Shown in pieces: positions 6,967 through 31,756 of a stretch of 64,000 nt of DNA. The translations under genes were made by a program, and so were the position numbers. A model generated the notes under the pieces. That model made no database searches, had not been told where the DNA came from, and saw only the letters and a list, made by a program, of their open reading frames with translations. Position 1 is the first letter of the stretch. Each line of letters opens with the position of its first letter. Origin of the DNA: a phage; sequence record NC_103192.1, one strand, 5' to 3'.

Positions 6967-6972
6967 AAATTG

Positions 6973-8484: not shown

Positions 8485-8489
8485 TGTGT

Positions 8490-8506
8490 AGTGTAATGAT
8501 TACACT
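8490..8506 (+). promoter_or_regulatory. 17-bp palindrome AGTGTAAT-G-ATTACACT (candidate operator)
   Basis: perfect 8-bp inverted arms around one central base, starting 6 nt after the TATAAT. Confidence 0.3.
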
Positions 8507-8546
8507 GCGTGTTTGATATCCGTGCACAGATATTAAGAGGAAACAA

Positions 8547-9923: not shown

Positions 9924-9933
9924 GGAAGCCTAG

Positions 9934-10407: not shown

Positions 10408-10423
10408 GAGCACACCATAGCAT

Positions 10424-10456
10424 AGGCCTCACCTTCGGGTGGGGCTTTTTGCTTTT
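10424..10456 (+). terminator. rho-independent terminator with UUCG tetraloop
   Basis: stem GCCTCACC/GGTGGGGC (one G-U pair), loop TTCG, then TTTTTGCTTTT. Confidence 0.75.
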
Positions 10457-10462
10457 AGGGTT

Positions 10463-10496
10463 TTGACATATTTGTTTGTTTTTAGTATCCTATAAT
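10463..10496 (+). promoter_or_regulatory. promoter region with consensus -35 TTGACA
   Basis: TTGACA 10463-10468; -10 ambiguous (TAGTAT at 15-nt or TATAAT at 22-nt spacing). Confidence 0.4.
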
Positions 10497-10512
10497 AAAG
10501 GAGGAGACAGTC

Positions 10513-12135: not shown

Positions 12136-12136
12136 A

Positions 12137-12165
12137 TTGACAATGCACTATAATCATGGTAAAAT
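12137..12165 (+). promoter_or_regulatory. promoter TTGACA-17-TGgTAAAAT
   Basis: consensus -35 at 12137-12142, extended -10 at 12157-12165. Confidence 0.6.
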
Positions 12166-12208
12166 ACACAAATATGGTGCACAACATGACTAATAAGGAT
12201 GCTATAAA

Positions 12209-12682
12209 ATGGCTATAAACTTTAGACCTACAACAGAGATTGATTTAGCAGGGCACAACTTTGTGATCACCCACTGGGGACCGATGAAGGCAATGAAAAA
12301 CATGCCTAAAATCGGTAAGATTGTAGCTGTCCCGCTAGGTGCTATCGGTGGATCTATTCTCTCAGGCGGTCAGAATATGGCAGAGGTACTTCCTACAGCC
12401 CTGGCTTACCTGTTTCAAGAACTTGATGATAACTCTATTGAAGAGTTATTTAAAATCTTGTTCGAAGATATTACCGTGGATGGTGTGGATAAGCTTAACC
12501 CTGATGTTGTGTTTGCAGGGCATCTGCTGGAGATGATTAAGCTGGCAGGTAAGGTTCTGGAGGTTAACTACGGCTGTTTTTTCACACAAGACGGTTTAGG
12601 AAGCCTTCTGGAGATGTTACAGCAGATGGGTATGATTCAGCAGGTGAACAGTCTGGATCAGACTCCGGAAGAGCAGGAATAA
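12209..12682 (+). CDS. tail assembly chaperone (G-like)
   Basis: 157 aa directly upstream of the tape measure gene; contains slippery heptamer; acidic C-terminus. Confidence 0.6.
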   Translation: MAINFRPTTEIDLAGHNFVITHWGPMKAMKNMPKIGKIVAVPLGAIGGSILSGGQNMAEVLPTALAYLFQELDDNSIEELFKILFEDITVDGVDKLNPDVVFAGHLLEMIKLAGKVLEVNYGCFFTQDGLGSLLEMLQQMGMIQQVNSLDQTPEEQE

Positions 12683-12942
12683 GCAAGGTTGTTGTGAGGG
12701 CCAGTGAGTGGGCAGCCAAGAACAGTTCACTTAACTGGTTCGACTTTCTTTGGTGCAGGGTGCTCAAGAATTTCAAAGGGGAAAATTTTGAATCGCTAAA
12801 TCTTGCAGATATGGCGTATTTCCTGAAGCTCTGTGAGTATCTTGATATCGAAGAATTCCTAGATACCGTCCAAAACAGGGAAATGGAGCGGGAGCAGAAG
12901 GCTGCCGCAGCTGCTGCGAAAGCTAAGCGCAGGAGAGGATAA
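12209..12942 (+). CDS. tail assembly chaperone GT-like frameshift fusion (join 12209..12583, 12583..12942)
   Basis: predicted 244-aa product by -1 slip at 12577-12583; downstream part ends in Ala/Lys-rich tail (QKAAAAAAKAKRRRG). Confidence 0.5.
12577..12583 (+). other. -1 programmed ribosomal frameshift slippery site T_TTT_TTC
   Basis: X_XXY_YYZ heptamer in the zero frame of the chaperone ORF; the -1 frame opens at 12568 (TAA at 12565-12567) and stays open to 12942. Confidence 0.6.
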
Positions 12943-12947
12943 TCTAA

Positions 12948-12985
12948 GGGCCGGATTCCTTTTCTGGGATCTGGCCCTTTTTATT
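12948..12985 (+). terminator. stem-loop with U-tract between chaperone and tape measure genes (possible attenuator)
   Basis: GGGCCGGAU/AUCUGGCCC 9-bp stem (one G-U), 12-nt loop, then TTTTTATT. Confidence 0.4.
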
Positions 12986-12996
12986 ATGAGGAAACC

Positions 12997-15333
12997 ATGG
13001 CTACAAACAAAATAGTTGCCACAACAGTCAACAAGATTGGCTTTGAGATAGAGAACTCCTCCTACAAAAAAGCTGTAGAGAAAATTCGCAGTATTGGGAG
13101 GGAGTTCAGGAAACTAGGTGAGGATTTTAACTCAGCCAACCCCATGAGTAGATGGCAGGCGGTAGCTGTTAAAACCCAGCAGACAATGCAGCGGGTTGCC
13201 AGACAGCAATCTCAGGCAAATGCTAAACTGCACAGGGAGAGCGTAGCACAGGCCAAGAAAGAGGCTGCAGTAAGGGCTGCAATAGAACGTAGGGAGAATG
13301 CGAGACGTAAACAAGCTGTAGGTAATCTTACCGCTAAAAATCCAGAAATGGCTAGGATGCGTAAGTTCTACCAGCAGCAAGCTAAAGAGGCCAAAAAGGC
13401 TGCCAAATCTGCACCAGTGTCTTACGGCGGTTATAAGGCACCCAAGGCAAGAGTTTTGGCTAATGCCAAATCTTTCAAGTATATCCCAGGTAACCCTAAT
13501 ATGGGTGGTGTGGCTTCCGACCCTAACCTTGTGAAAGCTCAGACAGCCGCTATGAATCGTTATCATAGACAGCTAAGAAGAGACAGTAAAGCTGGTATGG
13601 ATAATAAGCTTATGTCGGATCGTGAGGCAAGGAGAACCCACCTCTACAACTCTGCGATAAGACTTTCTGCCAAGTACGGAGCCGGATTCCGTGGAAGCTT
13701 GCCAGGATACTCAGAGTTAGAGTCCAGGTTTGCTCGCGGGGAGATGAAAAAGTCAACCTTTAACGCCCACCTGTCAGCTCTGCAGTCCGGATTTAAAAGC
13801 GCCACCAGCCAAACGCTTACACTGGGTGATGCCATGAGAGACTTACGTAGGTCTGTTATTAATGCAACAGCTGCGTACACGGCTTTCTCTGGATTTACTG
13901 CTGTGAACAGATCTGGTCACATGATGGAGGGGGCAAGTGCTGCTCTTACTGCTGTTACTGGAGATCCAAACAAAGCCAACAGTGAGGTTGCGTTTGTCCA
14001 GCAAGAGGCTATGCGTCTTGGCTTTGATCTCAAATCTGGTCTTCAAGGTTACGCCCAAATGTCGGTAAACGCCAAAAACCAGATGACAAATCAGGAAGTG
14101 CATGAGCTGTTTTCTGCATATTCCCAGTATGCTGCTGCTTATGGTGCCGATGAGGTAAAATACCAGCGCGGTATTATGGCAATCCAACAGATGCTTGGCA
14201 AGGGACAAGTAATGTCCGAAGAACTGAAGCAACAACTTGCTGAAGCATTGCCCGGTGCATACGAACCTTTTATCAAGGCCACCAAAGAGGCTTTTGGTCT
14301 TTCTGAACTATCCATGGATCAGTTCATGGATATGATGAAGAAAGGTGAGGTTAAGACAGCCAAGATCATGAAGTATGTGGCTAAGTACATGAACGAGGCA
14401 TCTGCAGCTGGTTATGAAAGAATGCAGAAGTCTAACGTGCTGGCAGAAAACAGACTGAAAACCTTCATCGAACTGACTCGTCAGAAACTGTTCACTCGTT
14501 GGTCTGACGAACTAACAGAGTTCTATTATACACTAATCCGCACTGGTGAGACTCTGCAATTTGTGTGGGATGCCTCTGGTGATTTTGTTAGCGGGTTTGT
14601 GAGAGGCCTTAACTGGGTAGTTGGTGAACTAAACAACACTATAGTCAAGATCCGCATGTTTTTCCTTGAATGGGGGATTAAATGGGGATTCATAACAGCT
14701 AAGACGAAGGAATATTCTGAAGAGCTTCATGACACCTTTAGCTATGCTAAATGGGCAGGGTTTGCTGCTGCCATCATGCTGGTAGTCAACGCCCTAACAA
14801 AAGGTTTTGTCATGGCATCCATGCTTGTAAAAACCTTTAAATTCCTTAACTCTCTAAGGGGTGCAGCTGGAGCAGCAGGTGCCGCTACTACAGAAGGATC
14901 TGGTGGTGGAGCTCCGGCAGGAAAAGGTGGAGGTGGCCTCAAGACACCTGGTGGCAAAGTTGGTCTGCTCGGTAAGCTGGGCATTATCGGTACAATACTA
15001 AGCGCCGGGGAATTATTTAATGACCGTTACAACCCACTAAGTGAAAGAAATCAGCAGCTGGATACTATCAGCGATATGATTCGCAAAGATATCATATCGG
15101 GAGGTAACGGGTTTGTTAATCCTTTGGACACCTTACCGGGAGGGACTCTTCCGTTGCCAGGTGGCCCTGGTTTTGCCTCTCAATTAAGAACTATGGAAAT
15201 GCTACCTTTAGAGATCAGTGATGGGAAAATCACGCTTTCCATAGATGAGGGCGAGTTTAGCAAAATACTTGATGCAAAACTTGAGTGGGAGAACAGTAAA
15301 GATATCAACTTCATGTCTACCGACCTTTGGTAA
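12997..15333 (+). CDS. tail tape measure protein
   Basis: 778 aa, helical Ala/Gln/Lys-rich N-half, Gly-rich segment (GAAGAAGAATTEGSGGGAPAGKGGGG), directly downstream of frameshifted chaperones. Confidence 0.75.
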   Translation: MATNKIVATTVNKIGFEIENSSYKKAVEKIRSIGREFRKLGEDFNSANPMSRWQAVAVKTQQTMQRVARQQSQANAKLHRESVAQAKKEAAVRAAIERRENARRKQAVGNLTAKNPEMARMRKFYQQQAKEAKKAAKSAPVSYGGYKAPKARVLANAKSFKYIPGNPNMGGVASDPNLVKAQTAAMNRYHRQLRRDSKAGMDNKLMSDREARRTHLYNSAIRLSAKYGAGFRGSLPGYSELESRFARGEMKKSTFNAHLSALQSGFKSATSQTLTLGDAMRDLRRSVINATAAYTAFSGFTAVNRSGHMMEGASAALTAVTGDPNKANSEVAFVQQEAMRLGFDLKSGLQGYAQMSVNAKNQMTNQEVHELFSAYSQYAAAYGADEVKYQRGIMAIQQMLGKGQVMSEELKQQLAEALPGAYEPFIKATKEAFGLSELSMDQFMDMMKKGEVKTAKIMKYVAKYMNEASAAGYERMQKSNVLAENRLKTFIELTRQKLFTRWSDELTEFYYTLIRTGETLQFVWDASGDFVSGFVRGLNWVVGELNNTIVKIRMFFLEWGIKWGFITAKTKEYSEELHDTFSYAKWAGFAAAIMLVVNALTKGFVMASMLVKTFKFLNSLRGAAGAAGAATTEGSGGGAPAGKGGGGLKTPGGKVGLLGKLGIIGTILSAGELFNDRYNPLSERNQQLDTISDMIRKDIISGGNGFVNPLDTLPGGTLPLPGGPGFASQLRTMEMLPLEISDGKITLSIDEGEFSKILDAKLEWENSKDINFMSTDLW

Positions 15334-18403: not shown

Positions 18404-19120
18404 ATGGCTACGCTTTATAGTGATATATTGATGGACCCACAGACAGGCGATTTGGCGATAGACAAAGGTCTTGAGTTGATAGATTCAAACCAAGTAAGTC
18501 TGCGCCAGCGCTTGTGGATGAGGTTTAATACGTGGAAGGGGAGCTGGTACTTTGACGAGTTGTTTGGCTTCCCTTATATGGACTTTCTCAGTAAGAAGGT
18601 CATGAAGACTGTTCTTGATAACAAGATTATGGAAGTGGCAAGACAAGAGCCGGATGTGCTAAACATCGTAAACTTCCAGTCTACCATGGATCGAAGATCG
18701 AGAACATACCAAGCGTTCTTTGAGGTTGTTACCAAAGAGAACGAGATTGTAAGGCTGGCTTTTGTAGGTCTTGATCAGTTTACCTACCCACAGCCCGATT
18801 CTGGGACAACCTCTCTCTGTGATGATGAAGGTTGGATTAAGTGGGCTAATAAACTGTACTACCTGATCAACTTCAGATTGCCTAGAACCGGAGATGCCAC
18901 ATGGTGGAACCAGTATGCTGGTCCTGAGATGGAAAACCCGATCCCTGTAGGCTCTCTGTTGACTCAGGATAAAGATCTGCTGATGACTGAGGCAGAACAA
19001 ACCATTAACCGCAATACCTGGACGCTTGCTCCAGATGAGCGCGAATACTCTGGTGTTATTGCTACCTCTAATGATGAGGCTATTGCCAACCAGTCTGGTC
19101 GTGCTATTGATGTTAACTAA
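18404..19120 (+). CDS. baseplate wedge protein (gpW/gp25-like N-terminal domain)
   Basis: N-terminal pattern DILMDPQTGDLAID...LRQRLWMRFNTWKGSWYFDELFGFPY resembles gpW/gp25; 238 aa, so carries an extra C-terminal extension. Confidence 0.45.
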   Translation: MATLYSDILMDPQTGDLAIDKGLELIDSNQVSLRQRLWMRFNTWKGSWYFDELFGFPYMDFLSKKVMKTVLDNKIMEVARQEPDVLNIVNFQSTMDRRSRTYQAFFEVVTKENEIVRLAFVGLDQFTYPQPDSGTTSLCDDEGWIKWANKLYYLINFRLPRTGDATWWNQYAGPEMENPIPVGSLLTQDKDLLMTEAEQTINRNTWTLAPDEREYSGVIATSNDEAIANQSGRAIDVN

Positions 19121-19129
19121 GGAGAAATC

Positions 19130-19798
19130 ATGGCTGTAGCTTATCCTACAATACCAATCCCAGATCTTGAAGATGCAGAAACAGTCTTGAGTGATGACTT
19201 CTTGGTTGTCAACCAGACTGACGGGACAAGAAAGGCTAAGATTGATGATGTTGTCAATGATCTTAGCATTACTAAAATAGTTTATTTCACAGAGGGCGGT
19301 TATCTTAAGAGCAAGAAGGATTTTGCTTATGATCCGGAAACTAAGCGCTACTACACATGGAATGGAGATTATCCTAAAATAATTCTCCCAGATTCCACTG
19401 TAGAGGGTGCCGGAGGTGTGTCTGCAAAAGCATGGTCTGTTTTTGGAGAGCTTGCTGCAACTTCTTCAGGTAGGATAGTTGATTACGGCTCTATTGGTGG
19501 TCAACTTGACATGGATCTTGACGTTGCAGACACGTTTAAAGTTCGGCTCACTTCAAACACCACAATCTCTTTTGAAAATCAAACAGAAGGGCTCGACGGA
19601 GTGGCAAGAACTATAACTGTATGCATAACGCAGACCTCTGGTGGTAACAAAGTTTATTGGCCTGACAATGTTAAATGGGCCTACGGAAGAGATCCTATCC
19701 TAACATTTACAGCTGGCGCAACAGATATTTTCAAGTTGGAAACCTATGATAATGGGCTAACTTGGTACGGGGCATTGATCATCGCAGGAGCTATCTAA
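19130..19798 (+). CDS. short fibre/adaptor protein with conserved N-terminal anchor domain
   Basis: first ~100 aa (DDFLVVNQTDGTRKAKIDDVV...FTEGGYLKSKKDFAYDPE...AKAW) are clearly paralogous to the N-terminus of the 22434 gene product. Confidence 0.45.
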   Translation: MAVAYPTIPIPDLEDAETVLSDDFLVVNQTDGTRKAKIDDVVNDLSITKIVYFTEGGYLKSKKDFAYDPETKRYYTWNGDYPKIILPDSTVEGAGGVSAKAWSVFGELAATSSGRIVDYGSIGGQLDMDLDVADTFKVRLTSNTTISFENQTEGLDGVARTITVCITQTSGGNKVYWPDNVKWAYGRDPILTFTAGATDIFKLETYDNGLTWYGALIIAGAI

Positions 19799-19799
19799 G

Positions 19800-22397
19800 A
19801 TGCGTATTCAACACAACATTGATAACGTATTTCAGATGATCGAGGGGCACAGGAAGTGCCTCGATAACAACACAGGTATTACCAATCTCCCTACACAGAA
19901 CAAACTGGTAAACCAGGATGGACTTATAGCGTCAGGTTGGTCAGGGAGTAAGATAAACAATGATTGGGCAATGCATGAGTCCCAAGCTGTGTTGATTCTG
20001 GGATACATTGAGGCATACAGGGCATCAAAAAGCGATTTTTATCTAGACAGGGCCAAAGAGGCTTGGGAAGCCTACAACAGTCATCTTCTGGGCGTATATG
20101 CAGTAGAAAGTAAAATGCAAAGATTGTCCCACTACCCGTTATCCACAGATGGTGTTCCATCACATGGTGGGTTTAAAGATGTGGTTGTGTCTTTTAACAA
20201 AGGTAGAGGAAAAATCCCAGCAGGATCCCCGACATGGGGAGAATACTTGGACAAGGCTTTTCAGGCGTATAACGGTGTTTTAGGAAGAAACACTGTAGAC
20301 TCTGATGTTTACGGCGGCACAGATGCTAATCCTAATTGGACAACTTCCGGATTAAGTTGGTGGGTTGAGTGGTATATAGCATGGGATGGTAACCGCTATT
20401 GGGCCAACGGTAGCATAGCCGACAGTGGTCATACGTCTGCAGAGTTCGGCACAATCCAACTGCAAGATAAGGGTGTTACAGGCAACCACAAGGTTACCTA
20501 TTGTGTGAGATTGCCTCAAGAGCAAGGCGGATCGGTGATACCTGCTGGATCCCCTGTAATTGTAAATCCTATAAACGTGGTTGCAGACAATCAAGCCCCA
20601 GAGTTAGACGGGGAAGAGATGTGGTGTGACGCTTGTTATCAACTCTATACCTTAACAGGCGAGGAAAAGTATTACACCGCGTTTAAACAGTCTTACAATA
20701 AGTTGCTTAATTTCAGCGATATAAACGCCTACGACAAGCTGTTCAGAAAGACTACGTTGATTAAGGCACCGTTCACAGATGGCACTTGTCTAGTTGCAGG
20801 AACAGTACCTGTCATGAGTAGGGACAGTGACGGATATATCAATTTTAGAATGAACGCACGTCAGCCTTGCGAAATAATCCAAAAAGGGACTACATACAAA
20901 ATAGGCAGAGATGCTGAAATTGTTATGAATTTCGGAGGGGAAGGGGTTCTGTTCCAGCCACATTTCATCCTTAATGATGGCAACAATAACAAAAAACAGT
21001 ACAGAATAGGTGTCCCTTTTGGAGGAGCAGAGGTAACAGAAACAGTTGCCAAGGTTACTGATTTTGTAGAGGTGGTTGGTAAAGACGGTAACCCATATCT
21101 CTTGCCAAAAGAGGAAAACATTGCCGTAAGCGGTGGCGCTAGTGTCAGTATGCAGTATGATACCGACATTTACAACCACTCTGACAACTTCACCCGTTGT
21201 AATATAGCAAGAGGTAAAGTAACTTTCAATTTTGGGAGAGAGATTTCTTTAAACTCAGTAACTTATCGATCAGATGATGAGATGGTAAGGGTCAAATTTC
21301 TTGACAAAGACAGGTGGTTATGGTATGCTGATCTATATGCCACTAATGGACAATGGATAACAGAAACTCTTACTCTAGGAGATTTCAAATTAGATCCGAC
21401 ACAACCTCATCACACCGAAGAAGAGATTAAACCTTTCTTTGCTAATCCTAAGGGGCTCACCTCTGTAGATTTCAGCCTAAGCGACAGGCAGATAGGTAAT
21501 GGCTTGTTTGATCTGTATTGCGTCAACACACTGCCGCAATTTTATATTGCAGATAGAGATGCTTATCTAATCTGGTTTAGCGTATGGATGGCAAGCAAGA
21601 CAGAATCAACCGCTAAGGTTGGCGATTGCTATGTCAGAAACTACAAGCAAGGTGCATACAGGCACACACCAGGTGTGTTCCCTGCCGGAAAGGTGATAGA
21701 TAAGGAAAACTATCTCTTAGAGGAAAGGCCAAATTGGCCCTACCCTGGCATGCAATACCCAGCAGTCTACTGCATGGGTGCAGAAAACATAGATCGCCAT
21801 AGATTGTCAAATACAATAGGCTTTCTGTATGACGCTCAAGTCTGGTATAATAATACATTTAAGACAGAGGGTCCAGTTGCCTCACGTTATGTATGGCAGA
21901 GAGGTAATGAAGGATTAACTGGTTGGTGGGAGATGGTAGATAACTCTAAGCTCCAGTCAAGATCTTTTGTTGCTGCGTGCCGCACAATATATGAGCTCAA
22001 GAAACATAAAGAACCTGTTGATGAAAGACTATTCCTGTTCTGCCAGAAATGGGCATGGTTCCTCAACAGATTCCAGTCATCTCATTCAGGAAATTTGCCT
22101 ACAGACTTTAACACCTCTGGTGGATACTCTTATCAAGATAGAGGAGATAGGATGTGGGTGGTAGGTGAATGGCTTGCAGGTTGCTGCTGGCTAGGTCTGT
22201 GCGGGTATTCAGAAACAATACCTCAAATAGATATTGTTGTAGAAGCCTGTATGAAGCTACTGCAAAAGCACCACTTTATTAATGGGGATAATGTTTTAAA
22301 TGGCTGCTGGGCAGTTTCTGATCCGGTAGGCTATCACTCTGGCGAAATCCTTCGCGGTCTGGGCCTTTATGCTCAATACCGTGGATTGTACCTTTAA
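19800..22397 (+). CDS. tail-associated protein, possible glycan-degrading enzyme
   Basis: 865 aa; aromatic/Trp-rich segments that could fit an (alpha/alpha)6-barrel hydrolase, unverified. Confidence 0.4.
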   Translation: MRIQHNIDNVFQMIEGHRKCLDNNTGITNLPTQNKLVNQDGLIASGWSGSKINNDWAMHESQAVLILGYIEAYRASKSDFYLDRAKEAWEAYNSHLLGVYAVESKMQRLSHYPLSTDGVPSHGGFKDVVVSFNKGRGKIPAGSPTWGEYLDKAFQAYNGVLGRNTVDSDVYGGTDANPNWTTSGLSWWVEWYIAWDGNRYWANGSIADSGHTSAEFGTIQLQDKGVTGNHKVTYCVRLPQEQGGSVIPAGSPVIVNPINVVADNQAPELDGEEMWCDACYQLYTLTGEEKYYTAFKQSYNKLLNFSDINAYDKLFRKTTLIKAPFTDGTCLVAGTVPVMSRDSDGYINFRMNARQPCEIIQKGTTYKIGRDAEIVMNFGGEGVLFQPHFILNDGNNNKKQYRIGVPFGGAEVTETVAKVTDFVEVVGKDGNPYLLPKEENIAVSGGASVSMQYDTDIYNHSDNFTRCNIARGKVTFNFGREISLNSVTYRSDDEMVRVKFLDKDRWLWYADLYATNGQWITETLTLGDFKLDPTQPHHTEEEIKPFFANPKGLTSVDFSLSDRQIGNGLFDLYCVNTLPQFYIADRDAYLIWFSVWMASKTESTAKVGDCYVRNYKQGAYRHTPGVFPAGKVIDKENYLLEERPNWPYPGMQYPAVYCMGAENIDRHRLSNTIGFLYDAQVWYNNTFKTEGPVASRYVWQRGNEGLTGWWEMVDNSKLQSRSFVAACRTIYELKKHKEPVDERLFLFCQKWAWFLNRFQSSHSGNLPTDFNTSGGYSYQDRGDRMWVVGEWLAGCCWLGLCGYSETIPQIDIVVEACMKLLQKHHFINGDNVLNGCWAVSDPVGYHSGEILRGLGLYAQYRGLYL

Positions 22398-22400
22398 CAT

Positions 22401-22424
22401 AGGGGGCTGTTTGCCCCCTTTTCA
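22401..22424 (+). terminator. hairpin AGGGGGC-TGTTT-GCCCCCT + TTTT
   Basis: 7-bp stem read from sequence. Confidence 0.55.
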
Positions 22425-22433
22425 GGAGAAAGA

Positions 22434-25400
22434 ATGGCTGATATTAAAGTTGTCAGAATTGAATCTCTTCCTGCCACTACTGCAGTGACAGAGGATGATT
22501 ACCTGGTTGTTCAACAACCAGACCTGACCCGTCGTGTAAAAATTGGCGATGTTGTCCATGTGGATGGGACTGTTTCTCATGTAATCTCCTTTAAGGAAGG
22601 TGGTAAGTTAAACGGCCCAATGGATTTTGCCTACTTCGAAGAGGAAGACCTCTACCTGCGTTGGAAAGGCGAATTTCCGCACACCGTTCCTGCACTGTCT
22701 TCACCTTACGCTGATGGTGGGATTACCGATGCTGCATGGATGGTATATACAGATCCGTCCTTAAGGGAGGAGCTGGAGTCTACCATTGGCGCATCTATGA
22801 TCATGACAGCCGAAGGGCAGTCTGTCCAGGATGTAATGGATGTTACGGTTCAGACAGCCAACGATGCTAAAGCACTTGCACAGCGGGTAGATTTTGGTAC
22901 AGTGCATACTGTAGGCGATGTTATTCACCTTGTCAACTTTGTTGGTCCTGCAGTTATTGAAGAGGGAAGAACTACTAACTACCCTTCTGTAGCAGCTGGT
23001 GAAAAATTTCTGAACGGTGTGGTATCTCGTCGTGATACTACAACTGTTGATGGTATTTTCCGTGGTGCTACCTCTGGAGCCATGTATACCATTGCAGTAA
23101 CCAATGGTGTGGCAACAACAAAAAGAATAGCCCTTCGTGATGAATTTAAACGCCTGGAGGCAAACAACCCAACAAGAACAATTATCCGTGCCGGAGATGA
23201 TTTAAACACGGCAGGGTACTTGCAGCTTGATGCAACAGGTCGTTGGGGTATGTGGAACCAACAAACAGCCTCGTGGCAACCTCTTGCTATAGAGCAAGGC
23301 GGCACAGGGGCCAGAGATGCCGCAGGTGCACGCATTAATTTAGGGGCTTTCTATAAGCAACGTGCAGCCCTTGAGTCAAATTTTAATATCAATAACTTGA
23401 CTGGTAATCAGGATGGTATATACTACCAGCCGATGACTGCTTATGCAACTGAGGCAAATGGTTACCCTGCAGGTTCTGGTGCTGGTCACTTGATTGTCTG
23501 GCAGAACAATGCTAACGGCGGTACAGGTTGTCGTCAGGAATACTATCCATTCTCTAACGTAGATGTTTGGTATTTGAGAACCTATCAGGCCAACACAAAT
23601 CAGTGGACCGCATGGCAGCCGATGGTCAGACCTCGTAACGATGAGACCTTTAGATCGCACATCGGTCTTGGGTCTAGGAATTCTCCTACCTTCGGGAACC
23701 TTTACTTATCTCAAAGTTCTGCTAATGTTAAGTCGGCATCTGGCATTGTTAACGGGGACAAATACAGTGCTGACGGTGTCCTTGAGCATGGGTATAGGAT
23801 CTATTCCGAGGTAAGAGACGACAATAAGGCGTGGTTAACAATCCACCTGCACAAAGGGGCAAAAGGGTCTGAAACTCATAAATATTTAGGTTTCCGCGAA
23901 GACGGTGTATTAGACTGTCCTAAATACATGCAGGTTGGGGATCTTACTGGTCAGTTGACAAACTGGGGACTTGGAGAGTGGATTCGTAGCTCAGGAGCAG
24001 AAAGAGGCTTCTGGGGGTCCAAGAAAGCCGCCAAGATGGTCATCTGGGATGGTGGGATGGATGAGTCTGGTAACGGCACTCTGGAATGGGGTGTTTATAA
24101 CAACCGGAAGGCCAAGTGGGAACCTTTACCTCACGCCGCAGGTGGTACTGGGGCTACAACTTTAGCAGAAGCTCAAAACCTGTTTAGAATACCTATGGCA
24201 GGTGGGGTTAAGGATTTCTTAACTCTACCAAGAACAGCAGCCATGGTAGATGGTAAATATTACCCTATTATTGTAAGAACAGATCCGTACTATGCATCAG
24301 CTGTTGGGACAGATATTACAATAGTTACAAGATCCTCTGCTGGCGACGACCCTATGAACTGCGCAACACTCCAGTGTCATTACAGAACTGGTGGTTGGAC
24401 AGATCGTGGAGACTCTTTTACTGGTGTTGTAAACTTCTACCAGAACGAAAGAGCAATACTTGGCTGTGTTTCTCCTACTCGCGGAAAACAAGAGTATGTT
24501 GCTTTTTATGTAGAGGCTAGAGCTTTCCCGGTAAGCGTATATACAAGCCGAAACGTGCTTGAGGTATTTACCAGAGAAAATGACTGGCAGGTAGGGAATG
24601 TAACTGATAATCAGGACGGTGTTAAGTTTTGTGCTCCGTTAGAGTCGGCAGACTTAAATCTTGCGATCAAGGGTGGTGGTGTAACAAACACCAGACCTCT
24701 GGTTGAGTTCAAGGGAACACCTGGGTTCTATACAGGCGGTAGTACAGATCGGCACTATGTAGGCACACCTGACAGAATGGTTCTAATGAGTAAGACAGAA
24801 ATGCCTCCTGTAGAGATGTGGTACAACGGTCTTAACTACATTTGCCCAGGCAGCCAAACCACCAGGAAAGCACTGTTCTCTAACGCAGGGTTCCAAGCTG
24901 CATCGGAAGGAACAGAGGATCTGATCAACAATACCTTTACCTCTAAATGCGGTAATGGCGCTGGTCTCAAAGGTCAGGCAGAGTTCAGATCTACTCCAGA
25001 GGCTGGTCAAGTTATTGTTCGTGATGTTGTAGGTTCTGCTCACAGATTCTACAATTTCAATAAAGATGGTACTTTCTCAGCTCCTGGTGGTTTTGTATGT
25101 CATACTGGTGCAGACTGGAACAACCAGTTCGGGCCTAACAACCCGTCAAAAATAATGGCTGGCAACGTCAACGGGCCAGAAGGTTCGATGGTTGTTGGTG
25201 GACTGTCTGTGGCGTTTTCTGGGAATTATGCTTTCCAGATAGCTGGTCGCCTTGATCAGTTGTATACCAGATCTATCGAAGGTGGTACTCATAGACCGTG
25301 GAACAAAATCTTCTCACACAAAGGTGCAGGTCTTGACTCTACAGACCTAAACACTTACGATGGTACTCGTGAGGGCATTTACCACCAACCATTCGATGCC

Positions 25401-26249
25401 AACTCAACATCTGAAAGACATTACCCGGCACCATATGCTGGTCACCTAATTGTTTACCAGAACAATACAAACAATCCGAGAGGCTGCGTACAGGAGTACA
25501 TTACACGTTTTGGTGACAGATACACGCGTGTTGGTAACATGGATAGAACTGGTTCCACTTATATGTGGGAAGTTTGGCGGCATGATTCTGGTAAAGCTAT
25601 CCAGTTACGCCCGAACCGCAATGTTGATGAAACAGATAAAGAGCTGTGCATTCATGTTGGTGGTTCTGAAAATCCCAGCAACAACGGTAACTTACCTAAG
25701 GATAATGCTGTGCTCCATTATTGGGGCAACGGCAGCACAGGAAATCGTCCAAACGTGTTAGAGTTTAAGGTTCTTGACGATTCTCAAGCAAATTGGGTAT
25801 GGCATTGTGGTACCTTGCCGGATAAATCAAGATATCTTTCTGTAAACGGTGCAGTAAACTGTGTATCCGTGAACCAAAACTCTGACCGCGACCTGAAGGA
25901 TAACATAGAAGTTATTCCTAACGCGTTAGAAGCTATCCGGAAGATGAATGGCTATACCTACACTTTAAAAGAGAATGGTATGCCTTACGCAGGGGTAATT
26001 GCTCAAGAGGTTATGGAAGCATTACCTGAAGCGGTTGGATCTTTCGTGCAAAGGAAAGAGGCTCCTGATCCCACTCAAGATGGAACTCCTTTGATAACAG
26101 AGGAAAGATTCTACAGCGTGGATTACGCAGCTGTGACAGGCTTGCTTGTCCAAGTTTGTAGGGAACAGGATGATAAAATAACCGCCCTTGAGGAACAGGT
26201 TAAAAAATTGACAGAGGTTGTTACTGGGTTGCAAGAGAAACTGAAGTAA
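22434..26249 (+). CDS. long tail fibre with C-terminal intramolecular chaperone (peptidase S74-like) domain
   Basis: 1271 aa; N-terminal anchor shared with the 19130 gene product; C-terminal ~140 aa (...NQNSDRDLKDNIEVIPNALEAIRKMNGYTYTLKENG...) matches the self-cleaving chaperone domain of endosialidase/T5 L-shaped fibre type proteins. Confidence 0.7.
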   Translation: MADIKVVRIESLPATTAVTEDDYLVVQQPDLTRRVKIGDVVHVDGTVSHVISFKEGGKLNGPMDFAYFEEEDLYLRWKGEFPHTVPALSSPYADGGITDAAWMVYTDPSLREELESTIGASMIMTAEGQSVQDVMDVTVQTANDAKALAQRVDFGTVHTVGDVIHLVNFVGPAVIEEGRTTNYPSVAAGEKFLNGVVSRRDTTTVDGIFRGATSGAMYTIAVTNGVATTKRIALRDEFKRLEANNPTRTIIRAGDDLNTAGYLQLDATGRWGMWNQQTASWQPLAIEQGGTGARDAAGARINLGAFYKQRAALESNFNINNLTGNQDGIYYQPMTAYATEANGYPAGSGAGHLIVWQNNANGGTGCRQEYYPFSNVDVWYLRTYQANTNQWTAWQPMVRPRNDETFRSHIGLGSRNSPTFGNLYLSQSSANVKSASGIVNGDKYSADGVLEHGYRIYSEVRDDNKAWLTIHLHKGAKGSETHKYLGFREDGVLDCPKYMQVGDLTGQLTNWGLGEWIRSSGAERGFWGSKKAAKMVIWDGGMDESGNGTLEWGVYNNRKAKWEPLPHAAGGTGATTLAEAQNLFRIPMAGGVKDFLTLPRTAAMVDGKYYPIIVRTDPYYASAVGTDITIVTRSSAGDDPMNCATLQCHYRTGGWTDRGDSFTGVVNFYQNERAILGCVSPTRGKQEYVAFYVEARAFPVSVYTSRNVLEVFTRENDWQVGNVTDNQDGVKFCAPLESADLNLAIKGGGVTNTRPLVEFKGTPGFYTGGSTDRHYVGTPDRMVLMSKTEMPPVEMWYNGLNYICPGSQTTRKALFSNAGFQAASEGTEDLINNTFTSKCGNGAGLKGQAEFRSTPEAGQVIVRDVVGSAHRFYNFNKDGTFSAPGGFVCHTGADWNNQFGPNNPSKIMAGNVNGPEGSMVVGGLSVAFSGNYAFQIAGRLDQLYTRSIEGGTHRPWNKIFSHKGAGLDSTDLNTYDGTREGIYHQPFDANSTSERHYPAPYAGHLIVYQNNTNNPRGCVQEYITRFGDRYTRVGNMDRTGSTYMWEVWRHDSGKAIQLRPNRNVDETDKELCIHVGGSENPSNNGNLPKDNAVLHYWGNGSTGNRPNVLEFKVLDDSQANWVWHCGTLPDKSRYLSVNGAVNCVSVNQNSDRDLKDNIEVIPNALEAIRKMNGYTYTLKENGMPYAGVIAQEVMEALPEAVGSFVQRKEAPDPTQDGTPLITEERFYSVDYAAVTGLLVQVCREQDDKITALEEQVKKLTEVVTGLQEKLK

Positions 26250-26256: not shown

Positions 26257-26286
26257 GCCCTCGCTTCGGCGGGGGCTTTTTGTTTG
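26257..26286 (+). terminator. rho-independent terminator with UUCG tetraloop
   Basis: GCCCTCGC-TTCG-GCGGGGGC then TTTTTGTTTG; shares 13-mer CGCTTCGGCGGGG with the terminators at 31768 and 58128. Confidence 0.75.
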
Positions 26287-26348: not shown

Positions 26349-26939
26349 ATGTTTTTATGGGAAAGGCCTAGATACCTTCCGGATATTAGATTGGAGCTGC
26401 TGGCAGATATTGTTACGTTTAAAAGTCCGTTTACAGGTAAAACGCAAAAAGTAACCTATGCCACACCTAATTGGAAAGGCACTTTGACGGTCTCTAATAT
26501 TAGCGAGTCACAGTTACTAGAGCTTAAGAGCTTTGTTGATCAGGTGTATAAAGATGGAAACATCTTTCTTATTAAAACTTACGGTCACTCAGTAACAGCT
26601 AATGAGCCAATCGCCCTTGGGCCTACTGGTAACGACGATTTTTTGAAGACGGTTGGGTGGGAGCCGAACAGAGACATAGCCAGAGCTGGGGATAAAATAT
26701 CTGTCAATGATGAGTTGAAAGTGGTAACAGCTCCAGTACGCAGCGATGGTGTGGGGGCTGCTGTTATAAGCATATCTCCAAGACTTAGAAAACCTATTGC
26801 CGCAGGGGATACTATGAAGATAATAACTCAATCTCCGAAGGGCAGGTTTCATATCAGGGATATTTATAAAATTAAGCAAAAAGTCGATGCTATGCAAAAA
26901 GGTGATAATATAGTTATCAACTTCTTTGAGGATTTCTAA
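26349..26939 (+). CDS. hypothetical tail tip protein
   Basis: 196 aa, GGAGG RBS; first gene of a four-gene block ending with the J-like protein. Confidence 0.4.
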   Translation: MFLWERPRYLPDIRLELLADIVTFKSPFTGKTQKVTYATPNWKGTLTVSNISESQLLELKSFVDQVYKDGNIFLIKTYGHSVTANEPIALGPTGNDDFLKTVGWEPNRDIARAGDKISVNDELKVVTAPVRSDGVGAAVISISPRLRKPIAAGDTMKIITQSPKGRFHIRDIYKIKQKVDAMQKGDNIVINFFEDF

Positions 26940-26940
26940 G

Positions 26941-27492
26941 ATGATTAGAGCGCCATTAGATAATTTATTTCTTGAAAAGCTGGAGCTTGATGGTGTTGAG
27001 ATCTTAATTGCTGCAAAGTTGGAGCTACCGACAGGAACTGTCAGGGTGTGTTCAGGAACCGGTGTTGTAGTAATTGAGGGGCAACATTTTATAGGGATAG
27101 GTGGATCAGCAACATTAACTGCTGTGTCTGAGAAAGATGCCACCAACTTCGGATCTGTGGTAGCGACATTGAACGGGTTTGATCCTAAGTATGTGGGTGA
27201 TCTACTGAAGACGGAGTATTCTGGTTGTCGTGCCACGTTGTACATTACCGCTATGGAGAATGGTCTGCCTGTTACAACCAATGGCTTGTTTGACGGCCTT
27301 ATAACAGATATGGCTATTCAGACAGGTGAGAATAGTGCTTTGTCCATATCCATCTCTTCCATCTTCAACAGTTGGTTAAGAGGTTTTCCTTATCGGTACA
27401 CGGAGGAAAGCCACAGCTCAAGAAACGATAATGACAGATTTTTTAAATATGTGGATCAGGTGGCGAGCCGCCCGATCATTTGGGAGGTTTAA
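26941..27492 (+). CDS. hypothetical tail tip protein
   Basis: ATG 26941 with GAGGA RBS (track start 26926 is TTG). Confidence 0.4.
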   Translation: MIRAPLDNLFLEKLELDGVEILIAAKLELPTGTVRVCSGTGVVVIEGQHFIGIGGSATLTAVSEKDATNFGSVVATLNGFDPKYVGDLLKTEYSGCRATLYITAMENGLPVTTNGLFDGLITDMAIQTGENSALSISISSIFNSWLRGFPYRYTEESHSSRNDNDRFFKYVDQVASRPIIWEV

Positions 27493-27917
27493 TGAGCACA
27501 CGCCCTCGTTTAGTGGATTGGCAAGAAAGATTGTGGAAAGTGTTTGACGAAGAGGCCACCATACCTTTTGAATGGGGATTCCACGATTGCTGCACCTTTG
27601 CAGCTAAGTGTGTTGATGCCCAATACGGAACAGATTTTCTTTCTAACTTCGAAGGAACGTATAAAACAGAGTTGGAAAGCAAAAGATGGTGCATGCTCCG
27701 TTTCAAAACCACACACCTGCCTACTATTTTTGATCTCTTTATGACTCGACTAGATACTCCTAAACAGGTTCAGCGTGGCGATATTGTTATCTTCGAGGGT
27801 CTGAACGGGCTCACCGCTGGTGTGTTCTGGAACAACCAGATTTGGGCGAAAGGTGATAAAGGGGTCTTTATGTTCGATATGAAAGATTCTATCGTTGTTG
27901 ATGTCTGGAGGTATTAA
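27492..27917 (+). CDS. NlpC/P60-like tail protein (gpK-like)
   Basis: 141 aa; Cys motif WGFHDCCTFAAKC and later GDIVIF...G resemble the papain-like NlpC/P60 catalytic core; ATG 27492 with GGGAGG RBS. Confidence 0.45.
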   Translation: MSTRPRLVDWQERLWKVFDEEATIPFEWGFHDCCTFAAKCVDAQYGTDFLSNFEGTYKTELESKRWCMLRFKTTHLPTIFDLFMTRLDTPKQVQRGDIVIFEGLNGLTAGVFWNNQIWAKGDKGVFMFDMKDSIVVDVWRY

Positions 27918-30900
27918 TGCCAATTGCAATGATTGATAACATCGTTGCTTCTGCAAGATCTTCAAGTTATGACTGGAACGCATCCAAGGCAGCTCTGGCT
28001 GACAGCCTGAACACTGTTACCACCAGAACTCTGGATAAGATTTTCGAAGGAAACAAATCTTACAGGAGTCAGCAAGATAGACAAAAACTTCTCAGATCTT
28101 CTGCTGCACCTTGCTCTGTAGTGTATGGGAAGACACGCACATCTGGGTTGCTTGCGTTTTTGGAGCAGGACAGGGACAGAACCCTTCATTGTGCTATTGT
28201 TCTTGCCAATCATCCCTTGGAAGGTATAGAAGATATACTTATCGACGGTAATCCTATTTCTTCGTATGGCGATTTGGTATCGTGGGAGTTACATACCGAC
28301 AGGAAAACCTCTGATCCTTTCATGGGCACACACTGCCCTTCATGGTCACCAGACATGATAGGCAGAGGGATCAGTTGGCTACGTGCCAGCTTCAAGTTTG
28401 ACCCTAACAAGTTTCCTTTTGGGTTGCCAAACGTTACACTTGTCAAGGTTGGTAAAAAATGCTATGATCCTCGTATCAGTAAAGAGGTGTATACCAATAA
28501 CGCGGCCTTGGTGATCCTAGACTATTTAAGAACGTACCTCAAATGTCCTGACGAAACCATTAACTGGGAGTCCTTCAAGGAGGCTGCCAACATATGCGAC
28601 GAGGCGGTAAAAAACGCTGACGGAACCAGTGAGCGACGTTACACCATTAACGGTGAGTTTGACATGGATGAGGCCCCAGCAAGCATTATGGCAGAAATGC
28701 TGAAAGCTTGTGGTGCAGATCTCAGCTATGTAGCTGGTAAGTATGGTTTGCTGGTTGGTGCATACTATGGCCCGGCAACAATGACACTGAGTGAGGATTG
28801 TGTCTGTGGTGAGGTCAAGATCTATCCGGAAGCCTCATTTGACAAAAGATCCAACACAATAACTGGCAGATTCACCAGTCCTACCAAAGGGTATTCTGAA
28901 ACAGATTTTCCATCAGTGTTTGTCCCAGAGTGGATAGAGAAGGATGGAGAAAGAAAGATAATCGATATAGACTATCGCTTTGTTACCAGCCCTTATCAAG
29001 CTCAGCGTGTTTCTGCAATCTTCTTAAGACGTGCCAGAGCTGGCAGGATTATTGAAGTCACCTGCAATATGCGAGGTTTTAAATTTAAGCCTGGCCGTTA
29101 TGTTACAATGGACCTCCCAAGTATTGGTATAGTGGGCCAAGAAATGAGGGTTCTTGAATGGGAGTTTACCAAAAAGGGTGGTGTCAAGGTAAAACTCCGT
29201 CAAGATGCTAAAGAGTGGAATGATGCCACAGGGCAACTTCCGGATTCTGGCGATGTAGATATTCCGATATCTCCATCTGGTGTAGCTCAACCGCAAAACT
29301 TCAGATATTCCGTTCTCCAAGCTGGAGAAGTAACTCACGGTGTTTTGGCTTGGGACAACGTTGGGACCTACGCTCAAAATATTGTGCAGGTAAGAAAGAA
29401 CGGAGAGATTGTTTGGACAGCACAAACAGTTGAGCAGTTTGTCCGAGTAGAAGGCTTGACCAAAGGGTCATACACAGCAACCGTGGTTGCAACATCTTAT
29501 AAAGGTGGCGTATCTCCGGAAGCATATTGTGAGTTCAACATTCAGGCACCTGAAGCTCCTGTTTCTGTAGAGGTTAAGCAAGGATACTTTGCTATCACCT
29601 TGATTCCGCATAGTAGGGATTTAGCAAGTGTTAGCACTCAGTACGACTTTTGGACATCTGGGATGACAAGATTGCCAGATACCAGTGATGCAACCGTTAC
29701 TTCAAAAGCCACCCGCATGGGTGTTGGTTCAACTTGGACATCTGAAGGTCTGCAGAACGATAAGATTTATTATTGGTATATTCGAACCACAAATGCTTTT
29801 GGTAGTTCTCAGTTTGTAGAGTGTGCTGCACGCTGCTATACCTCCATTGAAGATTTGATGCCTCAGATAGATGCTGAATTTAAAAAGACAGAAACTTATA
29901 AAGAGTTGATGAGCACTTTAGATTCCTCTATTGAAGAGGTTGAAAATCGTGTCACAGAACTTAACAAGTACATGGACGGAAGGGTAGATGAGGCATTCCA
30001 ACAACTTGGGGATAGGATAGGTGCTGTAGTTACAGAGACAACTCAGAAGTTTGAGGATGTCAATGGCAATATTACAGCGCTGGATAAGAAACTTGTTGCT
30101 GCACAGAACAAGTTCACCAACGATCTGAACACTGAAAGTGGAAGACTGGCATCCCTGATTGAGACAACCAATAAAGCAACCACTGATCTTCTGAACAAAA
30201 AGACAGAGGCTTTAGACGAGAAATTGGTTGCAGCCAAAGGGGAGTTGGTAGAACAAATAGGTGGAGTGGAGAGCGGATACCTTGCCGGAGATAAAACTCT
30301 GGATGGCAAGATCAATACCCAGAGAACAGAACTTGACGCAAGCATCTTGAGCACCAATAAGGCGACAGTGGATCTTCTTAACAGGACCTCTGAAACTCTG
30401 GATCAAAAGATCAGTCAGACAAACGCGACGGTATCTAAGAACTATACCACCCTTGACGGTAAGATAACTACCGCAAAAACTGATCTCAATACCTTGATTG
30501 CCAATACCAACAAGGCTACCACAGATTTGTTGAATCAGAAAACCTCTGCACTGTCAGAGCAGATAACTTCTGCACGTGGGGAGATTTCTACCAACAAACA
30601 GGCGATTAAGGATTTGGATGGGAAGCTGACCTCCACAAAAACAGCACTGGACGCTACAATCTCCGATACCAACAAAGCAACTGTGGATCTTATTAACGGC
30701 ACAGCGTCAGCTATTCGTCAAGAACTTGCTGTTGCTAAGCAGGAGATCATTAATGATGTTGGGGATGTATCAGAGCTAAGAGCTGCAGTGGCTACAACAT
30801 CTAAGGCTGTGACCGACTTAGAGGGCAAAGTAAATGCTCAATGGGGCACAAAAATACAGGTAGACTCCGCAGGGAATAAGTATGTGGCAGGTATCCAATT

Positions 30901-31756
30901 GGGCATGGAAGGCTCTGGAGGCCAAGTTCAATCATACTTCATGGTTAGTGCAAACAACTTTGCGGTATACAACCCCGGAAATGGAACAGCAACCCTTGCT
31001 TTCGCAATCAAGAACAACCAAGCGTTCTTGAAAGATGCTTTTATAGAGAACGGGACGATCTCTTCTGCCAAGATTGCACAAGAAATTTCGTCAAACAACT
31101 ACGATGGCAACGGGTACCATAAATACGGTCGGTATATTAACAAGAACGGGCACGCCCAGTTTATGGATGTGTGGGTGAAAGGTAATATCAACGCTAGTGC
31201 AGGTAACTTCACAGGGGCAGTTAACGCCACCAGTGGTACCTTCCGTGGAGATGTTTATGCCAATAATGGTAGCTTTAGAGGCACCATAGATGCAACAGGA
31301 GGTACATTCCGTGGACGTGTAGAAGCTTCCGTTATCCGTGCTAACCAGTTCGAAGGTGCAATCGTTGCACATAGGACCTATGGTGACTGCCCTCCGGTAT
31401 ATAACTCGCAGCAGAGGGTTTGCCGTTGGAGGTGGAGATATGTGGACAACGTGCAAGGCCAAGGTAAAAACGTAACATTCTTCTTTAAACTGAACGGTAC
31501 TCGTGCCAACTCTCAACTAAATGCGTGGATAGCTGGTCACCAATTACTTGCTGGCAAGAAGTACGGAAACGATAACGATGGCATGTGTGCAGTTGGGATA
31601 ACAGGTCTAGGTGAACAAACTATAGACATTATTATCGAGATTTACACACCATGGTCAACAGGGAACGTGACAGGCATTACAATATCTTGTCCTACAGTCG
31701 TTGTAAGTCGTTCTAACTCAAGTTTCCAAGGTCCTTGGAATGAGTCTCACGACTAA
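27917..31756 (+). CDS. lambda-J-like central tail fibre / host specificity protein (Phage-tail_3 domain)
   Basis: 1279 aa; N-terminal region (SVVYGKTRTSGLLAFLE...LHCAIVLANHPLEGIEDILIDGNPI...GRYVTMDLPSIGIVGQEMRVLEWEF) matches the gpJ-type domain pattern; central tandem coiled-coil repeats; Gly-rich C-terminus. Confidence 0.65.
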   Translation: MPIAMIDNIVASARSSSYDWNASKAALADSLNTVTTRTLDKIFEGNKSYRSQQDRQKLLRSSAAPCSVVYGKTRTSGLLAFLEQDRDRTLHCAIVLANHPLEGIEDILIDGNPISSYGDLVSWELHTDRKTSDPFMGTHCPSWSPDMIGRGISWLRASFKFDPNKFPFGLPNVTLVKVGKKCYDPRISKEVYTNNAALVILDYLRTYLKCPDETINWESFKEAANICDEAVKNADGTSERRYTINGEFDMDEAPASIMAEMLKACGADLSYVAGKYGLLVGAYYGPATMTLSEDCVCGEVKIYPEASFDKRSNTITGRFTSPTKGYSETDFPSVFVPEWIEKDGERKIIDIDYRFVTSPYQAQRVSAIFLRRARAGRIIEVTCNMRGFKFKPGRYVTMDLPSIGIVGQEMRVLEWEFTKKGGVKVKLRQDAKEWNDATGQLPDSGDVDIPISPSGVAQPQNFRYSVLQAGEVTHGVLAWDNVGTYAQNIVQVRKNGEIVWTAQTVEQFVRVEGLTKGSYTATVVATSYKGGVSPEAYCEFNIQAPEAPVSVEVKQGYFAITLIPHSRDLASVSTQYDFWTSGMTRLPDTSDATVTSKATRMGVGSTWTSEGLQNDKIYYWYIRTTNAFGSSQFVECAARCYTSIEDLMPQIDAEFKKTETYKELMSTLDSSIEEVENRVTELNKYMDGRVDEAFQQLGDRIGAVVTETTQKFEDVNGNITALDKKLVAAQNKFTNDLNTESGRLASLIETTNKATTDLLNKKTEALDEKLVAAKGELVEQIGGVESGYLAGDKTLDGKINTQRTELDASILSTNKATVDLLNRTSETLDQKISQTNATVSKNYTTLDGKITTAKTDLNTLIANTNKATTDLLNQKTSALSEQITSARGEISTNKQAIKDLDGKLTSTKTALDATISDTNKATVDLINGTASAIRQELAVAKQEIINDVGDVSELRAAVATTSKAVTDLEGKVNAQWGTKIQVDSAGNKYVAGIQLGMEGSGGQVQSYFMVSANNFAVYNPGNGTATLAFAIKNNQAFLKDAFIENGTISSAKIAQEISSNNYDGNGYHKYGRYINKNGHAQFMDVWVKGNINASAGNFTGAVNATSGTFRGDVYANNGSFRGTIDATGGTFRGRVEASVIRANQFEGAIVAHRTYGDCPPVYNSQQRVCRWRWRYVDNVQGQGKNVTFFFKLNGTRANSQLNAWIAGHQLLAGKKYGNDNDGMCAVGITGLGEQTIDIIIEIYTPWSTGNVTGITISCPTVVVSRSNSSFQGPWNESHD
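30064..30790 (+). repeat. tandem ~50-aa coiled-coil repeats inside the J-like gene
   Basis: repeated unit ...LDGKI.T.KT.L...I..TNKAT.DLLN... at least four times at protein level, with correspondingly similar DNA units. Confidence 0.5.

Follow-up and report, generated by a model that had tools for sequence, protein, structure and literature searches.

The 64,000-nucleotide stretch analyzed here (sequence record NC_103192.1; "the window" throughout) is the tail and baseplate region of a Vequintavirus, an rV5-like Escherichia coli myophage. It carries three consecutive genes for proteins of 222, 865 and 1271 amino acids (aa), the last of which is a long tail fiber. The 222-aa protein and the 1271-aa fiber begin with a homologous N-terminal module, or plug. 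The model that we favor, and regard as probable though far from secure, is that the 222-aa protein is an adaptor holding the 865-aa protein, and that the same type of plug mounts this 222+865 complex and the 1271-aa fiber simultaneously on two sockets. More tentatively, we propose that the 222+865 pair is one instance of a widespread, undescribed two-gene adaptor–cargo cassette, in which a ~110-aa handle belonging to no Pfam family holds a protein of ~860–1160 aa. The N-terminus of the adaptor would be swapped between lineages, which could allow display of the cargo at different sites on different virions, and in several lineages the plug would be that of the neighboring long fiber.

The N-termini of the 222-aa protein and the fiber are homologous, while the rest of the two proteins is unrelated. 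BLASTP aligned residues 8–105 of the 222-aa protein with residues 7–105 of the fiber at 38/99 identities (38%), 55% positives and one gap (E = 2e-18); all other aligned segments had E > 2. When each N-terminus was searched with phmmer against all 300 six-frame open reading frames (ORFs) of the window, its counterpart was the sole match (E = 2e-17 and 1e-18), the runners-up having E of 0.09–0.4. Smith–Waterman alignment of the two 110-aa N-termini scored 176, compared to 27.7 ± 4.9 for 2000 shuffles (z = 30). The remainders gave a non-significant z of 2.6 and a phmmer domain E of 1.7. A first-pass annotation of the window, which had read both ORFs and their N-terminal peptides correctly, had claimed just such a shared ~100-residue N-terminus on unrelated remainders, and the claim holds. 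A similarity 30 standard deviations over shuffles, reciprocal best matches within the window and assignment of both proteins to the same curated Pfam family dispose of chance or compositional bias as its source. No further copies of the plug or of the C-terminal domain (C-domain) of the 222-aa protein were found when the window ORFs were searched with phmmer and hidden Markov models (HMMs).

The shared module is a bona fide member of the Tail_spike_N family. Both proteins pass the cut-off (25) of PF18668, described in Pfam as "Tail spike TSP1/Gp66 receptor binding N-terminal domain", the 222-aa protein with 40.4 bits over residues 51–104 and the fiber with 38.8 bits over residues 46–103. Structural comparison, for which all models were single-chain AlphaFold predictions, agrees: the module has the same three-dimensional fold as the N-terminal regions of CBA120 TSP1/TSP3 and of G7C gp63.1. 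Phage database matches to the 222-aa N-terminus number 188 records and those to the fiber N-terminus 953, and they include Ackermannviridae, Kayfunavirus and Jerseyvirus-type tailspikes as well as phi92-like phages, which places the module in a large known family of N-terminal attachment domains. In this phage, too, the plug would serve as an anchor.

The plug consists of a docking peptide followed by the Tail_spike_N β-sandwich. The peptide motif, ..(S/P)DLP......DD(F/Y)LVV.Q.D.TR(K/R).KI.DVV, comes from an alignment of the 222-aa protein, the 1271-aa fiber, 4MG gp049/gp047 and PaulScherrer 0024/0027, and in the 222-aa protein the peptide is predicted to form a β-hairpin (residues 24–37) and a helix (38–44). 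A peptide HMM matched only the 222-aa and 1271-aa ORFs within the window (E about 5e-22). The peptide is separable from the sandwich, as the 157-aa orthologue in the phi92-like phage PaulScherrer joins it straight to the C-terminal domain. Related arrangements of plug-bearing proteins are found in other phages. In the Seunavirus 4MG, proteins of 224 and 929 aa and a 712-aa spike annotated for "colanic acid degradation" are encoded in the same order, and the plug is common to the first and third; PaulScherrer encodes proteins of 157, 958, 719 and 624 aa, and the 157-aa and 624-aa proteins share the peptide. Escherichia phage AV124 (Mydovirus; locus L003, 2392–10231) has four plug-bearing proteins (547, 559, 840 and 277 aa), consecutive or nearby, which fill the slot ahead of a 497-aa gene in the wedge position.

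The interpretation that first accompanied this observation, in which the module lets two different receptor-binding proteins dock at one baseplate site, fared less well. The shared module is real; the two receptor-binding proteins, the single site and the novelty of the anchor principle are not supported. In that interpretation the 222-aa protein and the 1271-aa fiber are independent receptor-binding proteins, alternatives for the same site by virtue of their common anchor. Besides the module itself, it can appeal to the "tail fiber protein" label that PHROGs (phrog_7760, E = 2.6e-118) and many records give to the 222-aa protein, to the position of the C-domain at the extreme C-terminus of many fiber-like proteins, the usual place of a receptor-binding tip, and to a weak fold similarity between the C-domain and glycoprotease accessory domains. 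However, the total phage proteome of rV5, determined by mass spectrometry, contains gp43 (222 aa), gp42 (the 865-aa homologue) and gp41 (1272 aa) together (PMC3606486), which indicates that the plugs are co-mounted rather than alternatives and that at least two sockets are needed. The 222-aa and 1271-aa genes are also kept together in every Vequintavirus record found. Furthermore, across unrelated phage groups the C-domain co-occurs with, and adjoins, the 865-aa family, which an autonomous tip would not require. Mutually exclusive receptor-binding proteins are therefore improbable. The C-domain behaves as a conserved partner of the 865-aa protein rather than as an independent receptor-binding head, and the 222-aa protein is probably an adaptor, not itself a receptor binder.

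Several lines of evidence tie the C-domain to the 865-aa protein. The two genes abut: the 865-aa gene starts one base past the 222-aa stop (junction TAAgATG), and the corresponding small and large genes overlap by 1 nt in 4MG, PaulScherrer, BP63, ST-3 and a chromosomal prophage (L015). Such junctions couple the small and large genes translationally. In tblastn searches, the C-domain matched 523 phage records, at one place each, and the 865-aa protein matched 524, with a near-identical taxon breakdown (C-domain/865-aa: Escherichia 239/242, Salmonella 99/101, Vibrio 58/62, Erwinia 33/33, Campylobacter 23/23, Cronobacter 12/12, Aeromonas 7/7, Klebsiella 6/6). Where the coordinates of both matches were listed (nepoznato, AV127, PJNS034, rV5_ev156 and 157-kb Vibrio phages), the small match lay just upstream of the large one.

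The small gene stands immediately upstream of an 865-aa homologue in 11 of the 13 contexts examined, namely Vequintavirus, 4MG, PaulScherrer, Rosemountvirus BP63 (gp28/gp29), Kolesnikvirus ST-3 (244 aa/1157 aa), a Burkholderia vietnamiensis prophage (473 aa/911 aa) and five contigs of metagenomic or genomic origin (L010 and L013–L016); from BP63 onward in this list, the pair was confirmed by HMM. What stays constant across these 11 contexts is the C-domain together with the N-terminus of the large protein, NIDNxxQ(L/M)(I/V)xGHxxFLxxNTGxT. The N-terminal half of the small protein differs: it can be the plug with Tail_spike_N, the plug peptide by itself, a coiled coil (BP63), 360 aa that include SPRY (Burkholderia) or a region faintly matching a tail-tube protein (L015). 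Because the conserved half tracks the large protein and the variable one goes with the lineage, a handle joined to an anchor, that is, an adaptor, is the most economical reading. No natural fusion of small and large proteins occurred among 159 retrieved proteins.

In mechanistic terms, the plug of the 222-aa protein would fix the adaptor to the tail, and its C-domain, the fold of which may resemble gp9 and the gp10 XD domain, would hold the N-terminus of the 865-aa protein, which has no anchor of its own. One type of plug would then mount the 222+865 complex and the 1271-aa fiber at once, on two equivalent or paralogous sockets that may lie in the baseplate periphery or the fiber network.

The variety of adaptor N-termini bears on a second arrangement, in which the 865-aa protein is a baseplate-bound scaffold on which the 222-aa protein and the 1271-aa fiber both dock with their plugs, leaving the C-domain as a distal knob. 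This would explain why the small protein and the 865-aa family co-occur and why plugs co-vary within genomes (see below). In phi92, fiber I has the shape of an L, the endosialidase gp143 being proposed to sit at the end of its arm, and fiber II branches from the base of fiber I (PMC13450770), a geometry in keeping with such a scaffold. However, small proteins that lack the plug (in BP63, L009, L013 and L015, with a coiled coil, SPRY or tail-tube-like region) keep both the C-domain and the position beside the large protein. It is thus the C-domain and not the plug that accompanies the 865-aa family. AV124, moreover, has its four plug-bearing proteins and no 865-aa homologue within the 12.5-kb locus. 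We consider a scaffold role for the 865-aa protein improbable.

The C-domain itself has a broad distribution and a fold that may be closest to fiber-joining domains. An exhaustive HMMER search of 1.84 billion representatives (E ≤ 1e-3) gave 3191 relatives of the 222-aa protein, most of which match residues ~110–221, usually at the extreme C-terminus of the match; word-indexed homologue searches had returned only 4 matches for the 222-aa protein and 6 for the 865-aa protein. The C-domain matches no Pfam family even at E ≤ 5. Its fold neighbors are the Acinetobacter phage Solidus tailspike (7.0), CBA120 TSP4 residues 1–335 and 1–250 (6.7), both of which carry gp10-like XD docking domains, a gp9 baseplate protein (6.2) and the Pa223 capsid spike (6.2). 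The last match agrees with a remark by the phi92 authors that predicted gp140 resembles Pa223 gp52 (PMC13450770). The likeness to the gp9 and gp10-XD folds is modest and the matched TSP4-N domain ambiguous, and no sequence similarity to gp9, gp10 or TSP4-N emerged when a profile of 98 homologues was compared to PDB sequences, the matches being to the N-terminal module only. A further structural candidate, phiTE baseplate chain 9cuy_i (Foldseek probability 0.41), was set aside: the part of the phiTE paper that deals with fiber attachment describes a different, helical-bundle mode and mentions no homologue.

These fold data would also allow a third arrangement, in which the fiber plug has its socket in the XD-like C-domain of the 222-aa protein and the 865-aa protein attaches elsewhere; in CBA120, TD1 of TSP1/TSP3 docks on XD3 of TSP4/TSP2. 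Besides the modest and ambiguous nature of the similarity, it is with the 865-aa gene that the tight coupling exists and with the 865-aa family that the C-domain has its conserved partner, and no plug-bearing second fiber was detected in the BP63 and Burkholderia loci that have the cassette. Docking of the fiber on the C-domain is accordingly unlikely.

Within genomes, the plugs of the adaptor and of the long fiber tend to resemble each other. In local alignments of the first 46 residues, in-genome pairs scored 83 in ST-3 (at most 47 with any other genome), 112 in L010 (at most 50), 120 in 4MG and 75 in the window. In divergent lineages the adaptor peptide is thus nearest to that of the fiber in the same genome, as expected from co-evolution with a common lineage-specific socket. 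In L010 (a metagenomic contig; 5539–13566) and ST-3 (L008, 3978–6230), the small C-domain protein and a nearby long fiber share an N-terminal peptide of their own. These lineage-specific peptides, e.g. MATALKKTRLHELDSYAG... and MAKAVKKIRLHDLRPYAG..., are unlike the Vequintavirus plug and occur in the same arrangement.

Some results weigh against the adaptor–cargo model with shared sockets. For the plug of the 222-aa protein, higher scores were obtained with 4MG gp049 and the 840-aa protein of AV124 than with the plug of the 1271-aa fiber. No gp9/gp10-type Pfam family (gp10-like branching or XD domain) was matched in the window tail proteins scanned at E ≤ 0.01, nor at E ≤ 5 in the 222-aa C-domain or the 865-, 581-, 228-, 238- and 346-aa proteins. 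Finally, in two of the 13 contexts the C-domain ends proteins of 772 and 1705 aa and the next gene codes for something other than an 865-aa homologue; the C-domain does not always partner the 865-aa family, and the handle may accept other partners. The 772-aa protein (L011, 1730–4745) matches PTL_trimer and the 1705-aa protein (L012, 2696–8718) matches Phage_phiTE_241_C, and the genes directly after them encode an RCC1-like repeat protein and a weakly GH26-like protein, respectively.

The site of attachment may differ between phages. In L015 (5001–9505; a prophage in a 5.48-Mb chromosomal record), the 560-aa protein with the faint tail-tube-protein match has the C-domain at its end. Its gene comes directly behind those of the capsid, and the next gene encodes a homologue of the 865-aa protein with 940 aa. 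The cassette of BP63 is upstream of the sheath gene. These positions suggest that the cassette may be mounted elsewhere than on the baseplate in some phages.

Conserved N-terminal anchors or docking peptides on exchangeable receptor-binding proteins are established in CBA120 (PMC8825819, PMC11414711), G7C, KP32/K11/KP34 and K1F (PMC13352976). A shared anchor as such therefore adds little beyond one more example, and the comparison with these systems lies in the details. The branched tailspikes TSP1–TSP4 of CBA120 (Ackermannviridae) include, in TSP1/TSP3, an N-terminal region of the same kind as the module described here. Unlike CBA120, this window has no sequence-detectable gp10-like XD domain, a ~45-aa peptide precedes the sandwich and can occur alone (in phi92-like gp140), one carrier is a 222-aa protein without an enzymatic body, and the virion has a Vequintavirus baseplate. 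The N-terminal region of G7C gp63.1 is also of the same kind. However, G7C gp63.1/gp66 and Shigella phage B2 Gp48/Gp49 are N4-like podovirus appendages made of two large enzymes, whereas here a myovirus combines a mini-adaptor and an 865-aa protein with a 1271-aa fiber. In the Klebsiella podophages KP32/K11/KP34 and in K1-5/K1E, a short conserved N-terminal peptide is the transferable dock for a secondary receptor-binding protein (PMC13352976). Residues 1–45 here are likewise separable from the next domain and reused on different proteins, a likeness confined to position, length and proposed role. The KP32 peptide, of about 29 aa, has its dock on a T4gp10-like branching domain of RBP1, and sequence searches revealed no domain of this type here. 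T4 gp9 is the long-tail-fiber socket, and the C-domain may resemble gp9 and gp10-XD in fold, though not in sequence profile. A further related system is gp140–gp141–gp143 of phi92 (Stephanstirmvirinae), the genes of which are syntenic in PaulScherrer; a C-domain relative is annotated "Phi92_gp140". Phi92-like gp140 (157 aa) is without the Tail_spike_N sandwich, and the distal spike is of endosialidase type or a hydrolase rather than a 1271-aa S74 fiber.

The very broad host ranges of Vequintavirinae and phi92-like phages are credited to a multi-fiber "Swiss army knife". Which genes build which fiber was called "far from clear" in the BASEL study of 2021, and in the 2026 phi92 cryo-electron microscopy (cryo-EM) work gp140 was among the unplaced fiber candidates, with fiber II and the fiber I arm left unassigned (PMC13450770). 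We found no report of a shared plug in Vequintavirus in the literature searched, although an earlier notice of the gp140/gp143 likeness may exist in Schwarzer et al. 2012 (phi92); the wedge and fiber parts of the Bas63 cryo-EM paper mention no homologue of the cassette. The adaptor–cargo cassette and in-genome plug sharing appear to be undescribed in the literature searched. If our proposal is correct, gp140/gp141 and gp43/gp42 would be unassigned density in the phi92 and rV5 fiber networks (fiber II or the fiber I arm). The wiring would be that gp43/gp140-type proteins are adaptors for gp42/gp141-type proteins and share their plug with the gp41/gp143-type fiber, and it can be compared with the existing maps EMD-51868 and EMD-51869 and those of phi92. 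For swaps of receptor-binding proteins in these therapeutic phages, it would set the boundaries at ~residue 45 (peptide) or ~residue 105 (whole module).

The 1271-aa protein is, as predicted from its domains, a conventional long receptor-binding fiber with a self-cleaving S74 chaperone. Its orthologues are found in about 120 Vequintavirus records. Compared to three of them in 50-residue blocks, it is almost always at least 94% identical to ~residue 550, with a single 74% block (in Murica), and variable from ~550 to ~1150, in FFH2 beyond ~950. Since the fiber is conserved to ~550 within the genus, the module boundary at ~105 is seen between genera and paralogues and not within the genus. The FFH2 orthologue (L004, 5001–9772) has 1479 aa, is wholly divergent past ~residue 950 and is followed by a separate 110-aa ORF; read from its sequence, FFH2 would carry an alternative distal end of the same fiber. 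Low-resolution cryo-EM of two Vequintavirus phages placed a modular fiber class ending in peptidase S74 at the baseplate wedge (PMC12143355), which is apparently the class of the 1271-aa fiber.

The features of the locus are collected in Table 1. The 222-aa protein is highly conserved in the genus, with 99% identity over the first 110 aa and 217/222 over the full length among orthologues in three Vequintavirus genomes. The 865-aa protein falls in phrog_2871 ("tail protein") and has no match in Pfam (E ≤ 5), NCBIfam or PDB sequences; its "glycosidase" label comes from the annotations of other records only. The hairpin between the 865-aa and fiber genes is at a position annotated as a terminator in Murica. 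A consensus terminator scan did not call it because its tail has only four T, and it may be a weak terminator-like element closing the 222+865 two-gene unit. Behind the fiber gene, at 26257–26276 (+), is a strong hairpin (8 pairs, 7 GC, T-run) that resembles an intrinsic terminator. Together, the two hairpins suggest that the 222+865 pair and the fiber gene may be separate expression units.

Table 1. Features of the adaptor, cargo and fiber genes in the window.
Feature	Position	Strand	Basis
222-aa gene (rV5 gp43 orthologue), N-terminal plug and C-terminal handle; proposed adaptor	19130..19798	+	ORF, PHROG
Docking peptide of the 222-aa protein, residues 1–45	19130..19264	+	motif P-DL...DDFLVVNQTDGTRKAKIDDVV; alignments, peptide HMM
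Tail_spike_N β-sandwich of the 222-aa protein, residues 46–105	19265..19444	+	PF18668
C-domain of the 222-aa protein, residues 108–222, conserved β-domain; proposed handle for the 865-aa protein	19451..19795	+	
865-aa gene (rV5 gp42 orthologue), proposed cargo of the 222-aa adaptor	19800..22397	+	ORF, PHROG
GC-rich hairpin GGGGGC-tgttt-GCCCCC then TTTT, between the 865-aa and fiber genes	22402..22422	+	sequence reading
1271-aa long tail fiber gene (rV5 gp41 orthologue)	22434..26249	+	ORF, phrog_6578
Fiber docking peptide, residues 1–44, paralogous to the 222-aa peptide	22434..22565	+	alignments, peptide HMM
Fiber Tail_spike_N β-sandwich, residues 45–105	22566..22748	+	PF18668
Peptidase_S74 intramolecular chaperone domain, fiber residues 1150–1201	25881..26036	+	PF13884, 55.8 bits, cut-off 22

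Positions 19000–23000 are 95–97.5% identical in nucleotide sequence to ~120 rV5-like Vequintavirus myophages, e.g. ECP26, B9-1, RudolfGeigy and V5, and the gene order is that of the annotated RudolfGeigy record. The genes for the tape measure, tube initiator, hub, spike and a 238-aa "baseplate protein", the latter at the sheath-initiator position by synteny with phi92 gp139, precede those for the 222-, 865- and 1271-aa proteins. A lambda-J-like block, the wedge genes and further fibers follow. The sheath initiator is encoded at 18404–19120, and two wedge proteins are encoded at 31861–33351 and 33363–34049.

Three other regions of the window stand out. Between the tail tube gene (9934–10407) and the tail assembly chaperone gene (12209–12682) lies a 540-aa ORF (10513–12135, +) with a weak, below cut-off match to a treble-clef zinc finger (DUF4379). 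It is present whole in 1 of 117 related phage records (HMD-6) and partially in three, the others matching the flanks only, and it looks like a sporadic mobile insertion, e.g. a homing-endonuclease-type gene. Between the 1271-aa fiber and the wedge genes, a lambda-like tail-tip block (26349–31756, +) is embedded in the myovirus baseplate cluster. It encodes a gpJ-like protein of 1279 aa that has Phage_Tail_Tip and Ig_J domains, along with a 145-aa DUF6950 protein and proteins of 196 and 188 aa, and is not at the corresponding position in 4MG or PaulScherrer. Lastly, a 690-aa protein (34049–36121, +) matches the TIM-barrel and N-terminal domains of "non-contractile tail sheath protein" (PF23845, PF23844) as well as Calx-beta. 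Its orthologue is annotated in BASEL as a lateral tail fiber with glycosidase and deacetylase domains, and such a deacetylase fiber is described there as a putative fiber targeting enterobacterial common antigen (ECA).

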